Positions 34,096 through 45,488 of a stretch of DNA of 64,000 nucleotides are shown piece by piece. A program made the position numbers and the translations under genes. The DNA is from Lachnospiraceae bacterium UBA4631 (GTDB lineage Bacteria > Bacillota > Clostridia > Lachnospirales > Lachnospiraceae), in NCBI GenBank assembly GCA_002406015.1, contig DHMX01000023.1, positions 238,233 through 302,232 of the forward strand, in the 5' to 3' direction. Numbering within the stretch: the stretch's first letter is position 1; every line of letters starts with the position of its first letter. The notes below the pieces were generated by a model. The model saw only the letters and a program-made list of their open reading frames with translations, made no database searches and was not told where the DNA came from.

Positions 34096-34710
34096 ATGAA
34101 GAAATACGGATATGTACGCGTGTCATCGAAAGATCAGAATTTAAATCGACAGTTGGATGCATTATATGAGGTGGGAGTAGAATCAAAAAATGTATATATT
34201 GATAAGCTGTCGGGGAAAGACTTTAACCGACCGAACTATAAGAGACTGGTATCCAGACTTCAGGAAGGTGATATTGTTGTAATCATGAGTATAGACAGAT
34301 TAGGGAGAAACTATGATGAGATTCTGGAACAGTGGAGGCTGTTGACAAAAGAACGACGAGTCAATATAGAGGTAGTTGATATGCCACTATTAAATACGAA
34401 TTATGAGCGGGAGGGATTGACAAGTGTTTTTATTTCCGATTTGGTTTTACAGATATTAGCATATGTTGCGGAAACGGAACGCTCATTTATAAGGCAGAGA
34501 CAGGCGGAAGGAATAGCAGCAGCTAAGGCTAGGGGAGTGAAGTTCGGGGTACAAAGACGGCAAATGCCGGAGGAGTTTGAAAAATATTTTCGACTATGGA
34601 AGGATAAAAAGATTACTGTTCGGAAAGCGGCAGAAAAATTAGGAATTGGTTATTCTACATTTTACAGGCGATGTAGGGAATTGCAAGAAAGTGATGAGAA
34701 AGTGTTGTGA
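34096..34710 (+). CDS. Small serine recombinase (resolvase/invertase family)
   Basis: MKKYGYVRVSSKDQNLNRQLDAL...IVVIMSIDRLGRN... carries the catalytic Ser in the YxRVSxxxQ motif plus a C-terminal HTH (ITVRKAAEKLGIGYSTFYR). RBS AAGGAGG upstream. Confidence 0.9.
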   Translation: MKKYGYVRVSSKDQNLNRQLDALYEVGVESKNVYIDKLSGKDFNRPNYKRLVSRLQEGDIVVIMSIDRLGRNYDEILEQWRLLTKERRVNIEVVDMPLLNTNYEREGLTSVFISDLVLQILAYVAETERSFIRQRQAEGIAAAKARGVKFGVQRRQMPEEFEKYFRLWKDKKITVRKAAEKLGIGYSTFYRRCRELQESDEKVL

Positions 34711-34748
34711 AAAGTAGACAATGTGAAACATCTAATATGTTATGAAAC

Positions 34749-34784
34749 AAGCTCGTAAATCAAATGATTTATAGAGCTTTTTTT
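34749..34784 (+). terminator. Rho-independent terminator after the recombinase gene
   Basis: AAGCTC (34749-34754) / GAGCTT (34774-34779) with inner TAAATCA/TGATTTA pairing, followed by a T7 run. Confidence 0.55.
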
Positions 34785-34934
34785 ATTATATAACATGTGT
34801 TTCGAAAAGTCTACTTTTGGAAAATTACAATTTCAGATAGCTTGGGGTTGTCTGTGAAAGATGGATAAAGGAGGGAAAAGAGAAAAAGGAGTATCCATTG
34901 TAAATCAATAGAGAAATAAGGGAGGAACAAAGAG

Positions 34935-41774: not shown

Positions 41775-41978
41775 AAATACTGAAAAGAAAACAAATGAAA
41801 CTCTGCGACGGAAGACATTGAAACCATGTTGAATGTCTGACCAAGAAAACGAACGAAGGGCGAGAATATGAGGCAGTTGTGAAATCCTTGAGTGGTTTAT
41901 GACTAAAGAAAAATGTCCTGAAAAATTTAAGACAATATTTTTATAAAAAGATAGATTGACAAAGGAGGAGAGAAAACT

Positions 41979-43713
41979 ATGATTTCGCAGACAGACAGAC
42001 AGACAGACAGACAGACAGACAGACAGACAGACAGGTTATCCATCGGTTGATAAACCATGGCTTAAATATTATGAACGTGCACTTGATGATTCGGATATTC
42101 CGAAATGTAGTGCATACCATTTGCTTTACCAAAACAATAAGGATTATATGAATGATGTTGCACTCATTTATTTTAATAGAAAAATAAAATTCAAAGAGCT
42201 GTTTGACAAAATCCATAAGACAGCGGCATCACTCAAGGAACTTGGCATAAGGAAGGGAGATGTAGTTACTCTTCAGGTATTGAATATGCCTCAGGTTGTG
42301 GAATTGTTTTATGCAATCAGTTATATCGGTGCAGTAGCCAATCTGATATATGCATCTGCCTCTTGGAAAGAAACAAATGAGATTTTACACCGGACAGAAT
42401 CAAAGATGTATATAACCGTTGACTTTTTATGGACAAAACAACAGTGTGCTGTTGAGGGAACGAATGTAAAGCACATCTTGTTGCTCGGTACTGGCGAAGA
42501 GGCAGACGGCTTAACAAAGACTATAATAAAAATAAAATCAAATGCAATAAAAAATGATAGATGCATGAGTTGGAAGAAGTTTCTTGAAATCGGAAAGGAA
42601 ATGCCGGATGAAATAAATGAATCAGAGCTTCCGGTAGCAATGGTATACACTGGTGGAACTACAGGAAAGTCAAAGGCAGTTGTTCTGGCGAATAGAAGTA
42701 TGAATGCACTGGTATATCAGTATGCATATACATATGCATCGCTTCAGCGGGGAGAAACCTTTTTAAATACGTTACCACCGTTTATTGCATTTGGTATTGT
42801 ATTTACTTTACATATGCCGTTGTGCCTTGGCATTCGAAATGCCTTGGTAACAGATCCTGCACCGGAAAATGCAGGGAAATATTTCTGTAAATACCAGCCT
42901 AATTACTATATATGTGGAATTGCTGGTATCGATAGCATTATGAATCATAAAAAGATAAAGAAGATGAATTTGGAGTTTGTTAAGGTACTTGGTGCAGGCG
43001 GGGAGGCAATACCACATGCATTTGAAGAAAAGGTTAATAAATTTCTTAGAGAGCATAAGGCAGGTACTATATTATCGATAGGCTATGGGATGACAGAGGT
43101 TGCTGCCACAGCCGTAACATCAACGCCGGAGGTACATAGAACGGGAACTGTCGGAATTCCGCTTCCGGGAACAATAATTAAAATTGTTGAACCGGATACC
43201 ATGAAAGAACTCTCATATGAACAGGATGGGGAAATTTGCTTTTGCACACCTACTATGATGCTTGGGTATTATAAAAATGAAGAGGAAACGGACAACATTA
43301 TCAGATGCCATGCGGATGGAAAAAGGTGGATTCATTCAGGGGATATAGGACATATAAGCGAGGATGGATTTTTAACTGTTTCAGGCAGAATAAAGCGGAT
43401 GATTGCAACATGGGGAGAAAATGCATACCATAAGGTGTTTCCTCAATTAATAGAAGAACTGTTTGCGGAACTGGAAGGTATAAATGCAGTTACTGTCGTT
43501 GGAAGAAAAACAACGGATGTTTTTCATGAGTTGATAGCATTTGTTGTACTGGATGAGACTCATGGTGAAGAAGAAATGCTTAAGGTACTAAAGAAAACAG
43601 CAGAAGAAAAATTAGATACATGGGAGCAACCGGTTGAATATCGTTTTATGGAAAGACTTCCTAAAACAGCGATTGGCAAGGTTGATTATAGAAAACTGGA
43701 GACTATGGTGTAA
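41979..43713 (+). CDS. ANL adenylate-forming enzyme paralog 3; the ATG is separated from the body by (CAGA)11+CAG and is currently out of frame (phase OFF)
   Basis: ATG 41979 (RBS AAAGGAGGAG) reads MISQ(TDRQ)n..LSIG then TGA at 42048-42050. The body (track ORF 42121-43713; YTGGTTGKSKAV, GYGMTE, AIGKVDYRKL) is open in another frame back to 41983, where it reads ...DRQTGYPSVDKPWLKYY. Confidence 0.8.
41988..42034 (+). repeat. Perfect tetranucleotide repeat (CAGA)11 plus CAG
   Basis: Counted directly: 47 nt of uninterrupted CAGA periodicity starting 9 nt after the ATG. Confidence 0.95.
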
Positions 43714-44678
43714 TGCGTGACAATCATATACAAAGAGGTTTATCATATATGGATGTGAAACTTCCGGATGATTATATACCTCCGAGAAAAATCAATAATT
43801 TGTATGGAGATGACTTGCTCTTTTATTTGAAATACAGTCGCATAAATTTCGAAAAAAGAAGCAAAGAAAAGAAAAATACGAATCGGGATCAAAGATGGCA
43901 TCCAGTTATGAGACTTGTATTTAAATTATCGAGAATGCTTTCAGGCATCAAAGTAGTTAAAATCAATGACAAACTTCCTGTGATTCCGCCTGACAGGCAT
44001 GTGATATACACGTTATCACATGTTGGCAAGGATGATCAGGCTGTGTTTAATGAGATAAGAACAAAACATTACTCGGTAGTATCAGGTGACTATGAAAGCC
44101 TGTATAATAACGTGGAGGGTTTATTTACAAAAGCAAATGGGGTACTTTTCTTTGATATGAATTCGAAAGAGGAACGGAGGACGATTGTTAACCGGGTAGC
44201 CGAGCGATTATCTGAGGATGATATATTATGCAGCATGGAGGGGGCATGGAATATATCCCCCAATTGTCTGGTATATGGTATCTTTCCCGGAATGATAAAA
44301 GCGGCATTGATGAGTAATGCAGTTATTATTCCGGTTGGAATCGAGAGATTTAATGCTAAATTATATTCCTTGAATGTTTCCGAGAATTATTTTGATCCCA
44401 TAGAAGAGAGAAAGAAGTTTTCAGAAGAAAAAGAGTTTATGGAATGGAGCAGGGATTATATCAGGCAAGAGCTGGCGAGTCTTAAATATAATACCTATTT
44501 TGATAAAAGGATTATAAAAGAAATAACCTGCCAAAGAAGCGAAATCGGAGATTTTGACGAATATTATACATGGTTTGTAAATGATATTTTAAAGGACTGG
44601 ACGTTTACAGAAGAAGATATTAACCGTAAAAGATACAGAGATCCGTTAGAACCGGAATTGGTATTAGGTAAGAGATAA
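43713..44678 (+). CDS. Second PlsC/LPLAT-like acyltransferase (divergent)
   Basis: YTLSHVGKDDQAVF (HX4D) and CSMEGAWNISPN (EG motif). The start overlaps the paralog 3 stop (TAATG). Confidence 0.55.
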   Translation: MRDNHIQRGLSYMDVKLPDDYIPPRKINNLYGDDLLFYLKYSRINFEKRSKEKKNTNRDQRWHPVMRLVFKLSRMLSGIKVVKINDKLPVIPPDRHVIYTLSHVGKDDQAVFNEIRTKHYSVVSGDYESLYNNVEGLFTKANGVLFFDMNSKEERRTIVNRVAERLSEDDILCSMEGAWNISPNCLVYGIFPGMIKAALMSNAVIIPVGIERFNAKLYSLNVSENYFDPIEERKKFSEEKEFMEWSRDYIRQELASLKYNTYFDKRIIKEITCQRSEIGDFDEYYTWFVNDILKDWTFTEEDINRKRYRDPLEPELVLGKR

Positions 44679-45488
44679 TCATAACTCCGAACTATCCGGA
44701 CCGAAGGTTCGCTGAAAGCGTTGGCTTAATACATCCATTTCCATATACGCATTATAAAAGTTCTCAATTAACTGACAGGCAACCGGAACAGCCCCCTGCA
44801 TTCGCCGTTGCAGCTCCTGATTGCTGTCGGCACATCCCGTTCGTGGCTGGTCGGGCATAAGAAGCCCATGCATCTGCTTATAATTTCCGGTTATCCTTAA
44901 TATCAGCAAAAGCAGCTTACGTCTGGCAGGTATAGCAGCCTGTAAGAGCCGGTTGTAGTAAATCATAGACTTTAACGCCCATTCCACCTGCTTTGGCTTT
45001 ACGCGTGGAAAGAAGCGGGCAATTATCGTACAGTCAACCGTCTGCGGAAGAATGTGGGAAGTAAGACAATACCGGATGGGGTCCCGCTCATGCTCCTCCA
45101 GAAGCATACGGTCAAATTCCGTTTCCAGCTCCGTATGTGTCAGGTCACTGTGGCGGATTTTATATTCAATATAACCATGACATTCGCTGTCCAGTGCAAA
45201 ATGACAGATAAAGCCGAACATATAGGCAAGCCCCGCCTCCGGGTCGGACATATCCCGCAGAGCGGCTAAGCCCTTTCGAAAAAAAGTTCTGGCATTCTTG
45301 CCATGTAATTGATACCCCTGCCGATTAACGGGATTCGGAAAAAACGGATGATAATAAAAAAGAATATCGGGACCATGCAGCCCCACATAATACAAATCCA
45401 AATGATTACATAGAATCGTCTGCAATTCGTCAGGAAGTACAGCAAAAACCTCCCGCCCGAAGCTTTTATGTGCATAAGTTGATGGCAT
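44679..45488 (-). CDS. Zinc-dependent phospholipase C-family (Zn_dep_PLPC-like) protein
   Basis: MPSTYAHKSFGREV...GLHGPDILFY...FICHFALDSECHGYI shows His/Asp metal-ligand spacing like the PLC alpha-toxin N-domain family. The start is placed at 45488, after AAAGGAG; the 80-codon upstream extension in the track ORF has no support. Confidence 0.5.
   Translation of the reverse strand: MPSTYAHKSFGREVFAVLPDELQTILCNHLDLYYVGLHGPDILFYYHPFFPNPVNRQGYQLHGKNARTFFRKGLAALRDMSDPEAGLAYMFGFICHFALDSECHGYIEYKIRHSDLTHTELETEFDRMLLEEHERDPIRYCLTSHILPQTVDCTIIARFFPRVKPKQVEWALKSMIYYNRLLQAAIPARRKLLLLILRITGNYKQMHGLLMPDQPRTGCADSNQELQRRMQGAVPVACQLIENFYNAYMEMDVLSQRFQRTFGPDSSEL

Follow-up and report, generated by a model that had tools for sequence, protein, structure and literature searches.

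Phase variation has been known mainly from the capsule promoters of Bacteroides among gut commensals, and from Gram-negative pathogens; the abundant Clostridia have been much less explored. Here, we analyzed a 64,000-nucleotide stretch of Lachnospiraceae bacterium UBA4631 (contig DHMX01000023.1, positions 238,233 to 302,232 of the forward strand), referred to below as the window. It contains a genomic island, present in only some strains of this human-gut bacterium, in which a serine recombinase gene and an invertible segment precede a series of genes for ANL ligases and LPLAT-family acyltransferases, and two of the ligase genes begin with tetranucleotide repeats. All coordinates are those of the window, genes and sites lie on its plus strand unless stated otherwise, and the contigs and loci compared with it are designated by L numbers.

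Two kinds of described switch are close to this locus. In the serine-invertase invertons (Hin, Gin, Cin, Pin, and Mpi of Bacteroides), the recombinase, of about 200 aa, combines a catalytic domain at the N-terminus with a helix-turn-helix (HTH) at the C-terminus; its gene stands beside a promoter-bearing segment flanked by short inverted sites, and both orientations occur in nature. These features recur here, with a predicted promoter and with both orientations seen among related loci. However, the segment is only 88–89 bp long, the −35 element lies in the crossover core, a one-way terminator is contained in the segment, and the recombinase and the switch travel as a cassette before unrelated cargo in Lachnospiraceae-type genomes. 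In the tetranucleotide contingency loci of Haemophilus and Neisseria, such as (GACA)n of lgtC and (CAAT)n of lic1, a perfect tract stands just after the start codon, polymorphism in whole units toggles the frame, and several genes of one pathway produce combinatorial states. The ligase genes of the island share this design. They differ in that the host is a Gram-positive-type gut Firmicute, the products are cytoplasmic ANL ligases and not glycosyltransferases, and the tracts are nested under a second, inversion-based switch.

On the enzyme side, Aas is the 2-acyl-glycerophosphoethanolamine acyltransferase/acyl-acyl carrier protein (ACP) synthetase that acts with LplT in lysophospholipid repair of E. 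coli. It has in common with our locus the pairing of an ANL with an LPLAT enzyme, and the two are fused in one related array (L025). The NCBIfam model of Aas matches both kinds of protein weakly (24-175 bits versus a cut-off of 1221). Here the proteins are separate, the domain order in the L025 fusion is reversed, and several paralogues take the place of one housekeeping enzyme; no LplT-like transporter or carrier gene was found in the island, and the enzymes have no transmembrane segments. The locus also does not fit the Dlt or AlmEFG pattern, since no phosphopantetheine-serine carrier protein is encoded beside the ligases. PatA, which acts on mycobacterial phosphatidylinositol mannosides, has a membrane-peripheral LPLAT fold with no transmembrane helices and uses acyl-CoA, the type of donor that ANL ligases would deliver. 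In structure it ranks with the best matches to the second acyltransferase of the island (AT2; Foldseek E 5e-6), at about 15% identity and a TM-score of 0.32-0.40. AT2 differs from it by an extra conserved C-terminal helical region of about 100 aa, and no glycolipid pathway genes are nearby.

Each control element is thus of a known kind, a serine-invertase inverton or a tetranucleotide contingency locus, and the enzymes belong to known superfamilies. It is the combination that appears to be new, and the locus is a compact, testable example of two nested stochastic switches on one operon. The reuse of a compact, self-contained switch cassette with different cargo also appears to be new, as do multi-paralogue ANL/LPLAT arrays as a cargo type in gut Firmicutes. 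No description of such a system was found in the literature; the search was limited, so this result is provisional.

We retrieved six groups of conspecific contigs with the YbaK-like gene (52419-52922) as anchor. Five of the six groups showed an empty site with no module and clean junctions, in which the gene order is NYN/OST-HTH, Rrf2, SpoIIID, phospholipase C (PLC)-like (285 aa), JetA, JetB, JetC and YbaK. The empty-site contigs (L039-L043) match the window at 28936-31175 and 44682-47418 with about 98% identity, and 22 bp lie between the two blocks. Therefore, the island extends over 13,506 bp (31176..44681) and replaces 22 bp of the empty site. It sits between spoIIID and the resident PLC-like gene, with a Wadjet-type locus adjoining. 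Exact look-ups with the rlmI-like gene and with the first acyltransferase gene (AT1) gave island-bearing contigs only; it was the YbaK anchor that exposed the empty site. Rfam and tRNA scans of the island gave no matches.

The guanine plus cytosine (GC) content was computed as 0.357 for the whole island, 0.330 for 34935-38257 and 0.370 for the ligases together with AT2. The flanks have values of 0.433 (atp side), 0.446 (Wadjet genes) and 0.420 (ilvE side), and the PLC-like gene has 0.471, which means that GC content jumps from 0.357 to 0.471 at base 44681/44682. The 13.5-kb region is an accessory, horizontally acquired, strain-variable island. An initial annotation of this DNA had proposed a horizontal module and a comparison of the locus with related genomes, and the empty site in conspecific contigs bears the proposal out. 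The AT-richness that it had judged by eye at 34.9-38.3 kb agrees with the computation (0.330 versus 0.42-0.45 in the flanks), and the tight packing of genes that it described is seen in overlaps of 14, 4, 8 and 1 nt. Its limits for the island, 34096-45488, have to be replaced by 31176-44681.

The gene at 34096..34710 encodes a small serine recombinase, as had been recognized in the initial annotation; it belongs to the resolvase/invertase family and has a C-terminal HTH (PF00239, E 3.5e-31). It matches phrog_125, a DNA invertase (PHROGs, E 2e-56), and its nearest solved structures in the PDB are Sin/Bin3, gamma-delta resolvase and Gin. At least 7,967 proteins fall into this very large family at E<=1e-40. 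The left crossover site, AAAGTAGAC-N5-GAAAC (34711-34729), overlaps the stop codon of the recombinase gene, and its core GTAGAC (34714..34719) is conserved in L013, L023, L025 and L027. The right site (34799-34817, minus strand) has the core GTCTAC (34809..34814). These inverted sites are 95 bp apart, and the site pattern was matched nowhere else in the window (2 matches in total); no further recombinase sites that would permit excision or shuffling were found there. The sites enclose an invertible segment of 89 bp (34720..34808). The same inverted pair follows the orthologous recombinases of L013, L023, L025 and L027, and the enclosed length is conserved at 88–89 bp in five lineages. In L023, GAAAC is replaced by GGGAC in both arms together.

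A one-way intrinsic terminator lies within the segment (34749..34785; dG −18.3 kcal/mol, z −6.1, U7 tail). In the present orientation it is predicted to halt transcripts from the recombinase gene; on the flipped strand the fold is weaker (−11 kcal/mol) and lacks a U tract. This hairpin had been taken for the recombinase's own terminator, and it does stand directly 3' of that gene with a U7 tail, but it is part of the invertible switch segment. A promoter-like TAGACT-17-TATAAT was found at 34785..34813 on the minus strand (10/12 in a consensus scan), with the −35 element within the crossover core and the −10 element inside the segment. In the window, L013, L025 and L027 this element is found at the right site and is directed at the recombinase gene, and in L023 and L028 it is found at the left site and is directed at the cargo. 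It thus moves with the segment.

The L023 segment aligns with the segments of the other lineages solely as the reverse complement. Inversion was observed directly between L027 and L028, in which the 88-bp segment is an exact reverse complement. These two loci encode an identical recombinase protein and have 20 differing positions in 16.6 kb outside the switch region. We had considered a 45-nt inverted repeat at this place as a mere terminator, and rejected this because of the exact L027/L028 inversion. The recombinase is more than a mobility remnant: it serves an invertible-promoter switch that would control the entire operon. As judged from consensus and spacing, the promoter and the operon structure are predicted, and the switch in this window would be OFF for the cargo, with the promoter facing the recombinase gene and the terminator blocking read-through.

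The homology between the window and L027 covers exactly 34054-34823, with 73.7% identity, and ends just after the right site. This stretch, which contains the recombinase gene and the invertible segment, delimits a portable switch cassette. Another recombinase, 66% identical and with the same site type, is located in a MobA/L mobilisable element. Beyond the cassette, the cargo of L027 is different and consists of a Band_7/zinc-ribbon operon in a defence-like neighbourhood. Because the cassette is shared and the L027 cargo is unrelated, ligase/acyltransferase arrays are one cargo type among several. The switch cassette gave no match to plasmids.

Some features of the related switches may be added here. 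At 8764-11992 of L027-L030, the same switch type heads the Band_7/zinc-ribbon gene and genes for three unknown proteins (135, 418 and 121 aa), and the operon adjoins ParE, a D12 methyltransferase, and Metallophos and ORC/CDC6-like genes; it is a possible defence operon under phase variation. A divergent Arc-like repressor gene is present in L013 (5242-5415), in L025 (2936-3097), and upstream of the recombinase gene in L023, and repeated TAAGTACA motifs are found between the Arc-like gene and the recombinase gene in these modules. This suggests that recombinase expression in the Arc-bearing modules is itself regulated. The window has no divergent Arc-like repressor gene.

The second level of control was found in ligases 2 and 3. 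Ligase 2 (40019..41774, ATG at 40019) and ligase 3 (41979..43713, ATG at 41979) begin ATG ATT TC(A/G), and 8–9 nt after the ATG they carry (ACAG)12 (40027-40074) and (CAGA)11.8 (41988-42034), both with 100% matches. These two tracts are the sole simple repeats in the window. Both genes are out of frame here: from the ATG they reach a stop after 20-23 codons, and the long open reading frames (ORFs) are in another frame. The distance from ATG to motif in ligase 2 is 70 nt in the window, 74 nt in L001 and 38 nt in L002. In ligase 3 it is 55 nt in the window and L035, 19 nt in L001, 31 nt in L002 and 51 nt in L036. All differences in tract length between strains are multiples of 4 nt, and the 51-nt allele of ligase 3 is an intact, in-frame ORF of 576 aa. 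The loss of one unit would bring either ligase in frame in this genome.

By comparison, the 5' CAGACAG of ligase 1 has two units only, is identical in all strains, and is fixed in frame. Ligases 2 and 3 share 95% identity in their 82-nt leader, whereas the proteins are only 35% identical. The same tetranucleotide repeat occurs at gene starts, or breaks contigs, in L013, L022, L023 and L024. The tracts, with ON and OFF ligase alleles, are hypermutable, which agrees with the phase-variable ligases of the initial annotation. We have high confidence in the regulatory architecture of switch and repeat tracts. Since assemblies break at repeats and pick one switch orientation, such loci are systematically under-annotated. 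A separate observation is that near-consensus TTGACA-16-TATGAT elements (11/12) are found in the leaders of ligases 2 and 3 (39996-40023 and 41956-41983), with the −10 element overlapping the ATG. If active, they would place the transcript start inside the repeat tract, and ligase 3 and AT2 would possibly be independent of the master switch.

The three ligases, of which ligase 1 (38284..39993) matches PF00501 with E 2e-60, have E-values of 1e-54 to 1e-62 for this family, and PF13193 (AMP-binding_C) is present in all of them. Reading of the translations by eye showed the P-loop-like motifs YTSGTTG, HTSGTTG and YTGGTTG, as well as GYG(M/L)TE and a C-terminal GK. The ligases are mutually 35-37% identical and are nearest to FadD, MenE and 4CL. 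When they were compared with the named NCBIfam equivalogs (FadD, MenE, Aas and others), the best scores were 247-271 bits versus cut-offs of 476-766, and none passed; therefore, the ligase substrate is not fixed by family.

AT1 (36159..37130) is an acyltransferase of the LPLAT/PlsC family (PF01553, E 7e-12; 45.7 bits versus a threshold of 23) with the motifs NHSNSHD and FGEGTW, and its comparison with PlsC (5KYM) gave E 0.007. AT1-like genes are also found in arrays L023-L026. AT2 (43713..44678) overlaps the stop of ligase 3 by 1 nt and scores below the Pfam cut-off (PF01553, 17.7 bits versus 23, E 3e-3), but many of its homologues carry PF01553. In an alignment of 51 sequences of the AT2 family, H103-X4-D108 and E176/A178/W179 are invariant. 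The AlphaFold model of AT2 has a mean predicted local distance difference test score (pLDDT) of 86.7 and a predicted template modelling score (pTM) of 0.87. Its top 17 matches in the PDB are all PlsC (5KYM), PatA, plant GPAT and LpxM, which are the sole significant folds. AT2 is accordingly a divergent LPLAT-fold acyltransferase, recognized by its conserved motifs and its model. The acyltransferase and ligase calls of the initial annotation, that is, a PlsC-type AT1, three ANL ligases, and an HX4D enzyme overlapping the last ligase stop, have passed the hidden Markov model and structure checks that it had proposed, AT2 through its model and motifs.

AT2 belongs to a small clade: a search of 1.84 billion representatives gave 729 clusters at E<=1e-3. 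No relatives of AT2 were found on viral contigs or on plasmids. There was no close relative among the GTDB species representatives, and distant ones were found in metagenome-assembled genomes of uncultured Bacilli and Lachnospiraceae.

Relatives of AT2 (65-72% identity, and more distant ones) occur in similar arrays, and the related arrays in other gut Firmicutes contain a recombinase, the switch, ligases, and 2-7 acyltransferases. In L013 and L022, a divergent Arc-like gene and the recombinase are followed by an acyltransferase, a ligase, three further acyltransferases, and a (GACA)13 gene. L023 has the recombinase, three ligases (the second one split) and four acyltransferases; L024 has two ligases and three acyltransferases, with repeats on its flanks. 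The order in L025 is a divergent Arc-like gene, the recombinase, three acyltransferases, a ligase::acyltransferase fusion (863 aa), NT5C, three acyltransferases and a ligase. Five acyltransferases adjoin SLFN_AlbA_2 and SpoIIID in L026, L020 has one acyltransferase and one ligase with no recombinase, and L045 has the recombinase, a decayed switch and a ligase inserted after rlmH. Esterase or lipase genes are near the arrays of L011, L023 and L025. Both the L025 fusion and the constancy with which ligases and acyltransferases occur together argue for sequential action of the two enzymes.

The sequence L045, the one match of the module to a phage record, is GenBank MT836284.1, which is labelled 'UNVERIFIED: Bacteriophage sp.' and carries genes for glutamate-synthase-like oxidoreductases, RlmH and Big_2 surface proteins. 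We considered it as a phage carrier of the module and rejected this, because the gene content looks like that of a bacterial chromosome with a recombinase-switch-ligase module.

ANL ligases adenylate a carboxylate and then hand it over to CoA or a carrier, and LPLAT enzymes acylate hydroxyls of lipids or glycolipids with acyl-CoA or acyl-ACP as the donor. The best explanation of the locus, to which we give a somewhat better than even chance, is that of a mobile island whose invertible switch and repeat tracts control a combinatorial acylation of the cell envelope. A flip of the segment would turn the promoter either to the recombinase gene or to the cargo operon of about 9.8 kb, and the recombinase-facing state would also set the terminator to block read-through into the cargo, which would be the OFF state. 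Gain or loss of repeat units would toggle the frames of ligases 2 and 3, both of which would be OFF here and one unit from ON. Each ligase may activate a different carboxylic, probably fatty, acid, and the acyltransferases may then transfer the acyl moiety onto a hydroxyl of a lipid or glycolipid associated with the membrane, following the logic of Aas or PatA. Cells of a clonal population would as a result differ stochastically and combinatorially in their envelope. The island, the invertible segment with its sites and recombinase, and the tracts with their ON and OFF alleles are directly seen in these data; the chemistry of the ligases and acyltransferases is suggested by family knowledge. 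Stochastic, combinatorial O-acylation of a membrane-associated lipid or glycolipid is the most likely output, and for this target taken alone our assignment is tentative.

If envelope-lipid acylation is true, it would be a new route of surface variation of gut Firmicutes towards phages, antimicrobial peptides and immunoglobulin A, and a role would be assigned to a rare divergent LPLAT clade. A wider view, which we put forward as speculation, is that the arrays form a class, undescribed so far, of mobile 'acyl-decoration' loci in Clostridia of the gut. In these loci, a master inverton and per-gene tetranucleotide switches would control combinatorial ligase/acyltransferase pairs that diversify envelope lipids or glycolipids within a clone. 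Under selection by phages and host immunity, they would correspond in Gram-positive bacteria to phase-variable lipooligosaccharide, and the cassette of recombinase and 88-bp segment would be a plug-in module that captures cargo operons.

Several observations weigh against envelope acylation by a single switched operon. All nine assemblies of the window's own lineage are recombinase-facing and the inverted form was found in none of them, so for this lineage we infer inversion, which was observed in a sister locus. The promoter calls are consensus matches only, and some basal expression could come from a weak match on the plus strand, TCGAAA-18-TACAAT, that extends across the right site. There is a gap of 204 nt between ligases 2 and 3, and together with the TTGACA-16-TATGAT elements it implies that transcription may not be a single unit. 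Both acyltransferases are without transmembrane segments, and no carrier protein, transporter or glycosyltransferase that would link the enzymes to envelope lipids was found in the island. Furthermore, defence genes (Wadjet, GAPS4, ParE, ApeA) are found around the island and its relatives. These defence neighbours, the DUF2806 gene described below and the unrelated cargo of L027 make a defence role a serious alternative. The cargo could be an anti-phage defence or abortive-infection operon whose cost is limited by phase variation; the enzymes would act on a target outside the membrane lipids of the host cell, which could be a phage component, a signalling molecule or a phage receptor, and DUF2806 and the membrane proteins would be effectors. 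The island abuts JetA3/JetB3/JetC3 of a type III Wadjet (45681-52403; PADLOC E down to 0), and related arrays lie beside GAPS4-type PDDEXK, ParE and PDDEXK_2 genes. The same switch heads the Band_7/zinc-ribbon operon in a defence-like island, DUF2806 is a domain of a validated system (Belisama), and an SLFN_AlbA_2 ATPase adjoins the array both in the window and in L026. However, PADLOC v2 gave no match for AT1, AT2, ligase 1, the orphan protein unk178 or the DUF2806 protein, and only PifA (E 0.0026) for the membrane protein unk234. DUF2806, unk178 and unk234 are absent from other arrays and are add-ons outside the core, the viral contigs yielded no AT2 relatives, and we know of no described defence system with ANL and LPLAT enzymes. 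We consider a defence role rather unlikely on balance.

The solubility predicted for all the enzymes fits another possibility, which has a slightly lower probability again: the ligases may make acyl-CoAs or acyl-AMPs from dietary or host acids, and the acyltransferases may esterify a diffusible acceptor, for instance a metabolite of the host or of microbes, giving secreted acylated compounds in place of envelope lipids. Ligases that are 35-37% identical and up to seven different acyltransferases per array would suit many substrates, and a hexapeptide acetyltransferase, an esterase fragment and a PAF-AH-like lipase adjoin the L023 array. Against such tailoring of small molecules, the structural neighbours of AT2 are all lipid or glycolipid acyltransferases, and the island has no exporter. 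Moreover, surface structures are the classical targets of phase variation by repeats and inversion. That the locus is simply decayed, with ligases 2 and 3 as pseudogenes, the recombinase as a relic of a mobile element and nothing regulated, is scarcely credible to us. Most assemblies have ligases 2 and 3 out of frame, and the single switch orientation in the window's lineage would also fit decay. Past the tract, though, both ligases have an uninterrupted ORF of >520 codons in which the ANL motifs are preserved, the tract lengths differ by whole units only, and an in-frame allele exists. The switch inverts precisely in the sister locus, and the repeat-bearing leader is far better conserved between ligases 2 and 3 than the proteins are. 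The model of the initial annotation, a coherent lipid remodelling in which a PLC-like enzyme removes the headgroup before re-acylation by the ligases and acyltransferases, is very improbable. PF00882, PF01553 and PF00501 do all occur within 11 kb, but strains without the island also have the PLC-like gene, a resident that the insertion clipped; it differs in GC content (0.471 versus 0.357 in the island) and is convergent to the operon, and no PLC homologue was found near any related array.

The PLC-like gene (44679..45488, minus strand) had been described as a Zn-dependent enzyme that closes the region. The family call stands (PF00882, E 1.8e-11), but the gene belongs outside the insertion and the module. 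Its island-side allele is 99% identical over 269 aa to the 285-aa allele of island-free strains and is 16 codons shorter; it is a resident gene whose last 16 codons, at the 3' end, were clipped by the insertion. Because it is present in island-free strains, the headgroup-removal step falls.

Four further genes precede or separate the enzyme genes of the cargo. The first cargo gene encodes unk178 (34935..35471), which has no family match and homologues in only 6 clusters among 5.8 billion; its AlphaFold model (pLDDT 58) was too poor for a structure search. It is followed by unk234 (35458..36162), also with no family match, in which a hydrophobic stretch of 42 residues (55-96) leaves room for two transmembrane helices, as had been noted before. 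The 303-aa protein at 37174..38085, first described as unknown, is an ORF of that size but not simply unknown: it is an Abi-alpha-like DUF2806 protein (PF10987, E 1e-17), and its gene has the lowest GC content (0.283). DUF2806 is shared with Belisama, a single-gene anti-phage system in integron cassettes of Vibrio; here it is embedded in a larger operon and is absent from other arrays. The small acidic ORF (38078..38257) has 59 aa, or 52 aa from the second ATG, with 18 D/E in the 59-aa version, in line with its earlier description. We considered it as a carrier protein and rejected this, since it had no Pfam match at E<=5 and no DSL-type motif by reading. None of the searches of the unknown ORFs, in Pfam (down to E 5), NCBIfam, PHROGs and PADLOC, was informative. 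No related array compared contains unk178, unk234, DUF2806 or the acidic ORF, which are therefore lineage-specific additions. Thus the gene set is not the coherent lipid-acylation set first proposed, as these extras are missing from related arrays and DUF2806 is a domain of an anti-phage system. At 9075-9660 of L002 (equal to 35233-35813 of the window), a tandem duplication of 581 bp over the unk178/unk234 junction creates an extra ORF of 196 aa; it could be genuine or an assembly artefact.

The island carries other genes upstream of the switch. A gene at 32129..33505 encodes an SLFN_AlbA_2/HATPase_c_4/winged HTH (wHTH) protein (Pfam E 2e-16, 5e-16 and 1e-7), and a membrane ORF of 77 aa is also encoded in the island. 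Just upstream of the wHTH domain, the SLFN_AlbA_2 gene has a perfect 11-nt tandem repeat (AAAAGTACGGG x4, 33272-33315), and a change in copy number would shift its reading frame. Four copies and no length variation were found in all six assemblies that span the repeat. Two direct copies of about 97 bp each (31120-31216 and 31945-32041; found by blastn as a 56-bp repeat and lengthened by sequence reading) bracket a nested piece of about 0.8 kb (31120..32041) with ORFs of 67 aa and 217 aa. Strains L002 and L003 do not have this nested piece (window 31216-31947).

Variation is also seen outside the island. The upstream stretch 25300-31175 has a GC content of 0.364 and contains AAA_14/DUF4143, NYN+OST-HTH, Rrf2 and SpoIIID genes. 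Strain-specific swaps were found in it: L001 has an Rce1-like gene, and L002 and L003 have a GNAT gene. On the other side, no JetD-like gene follows JetC, and the YbaK-type tRNA-editing gene begins 7 bp later, with the same arrangement in island-free strains; the Wadjet-type locus may be a nuclease-less, condensin-like variant. The stretch from rlmI to Wadjet as a whole behaves like a variable hotspot.

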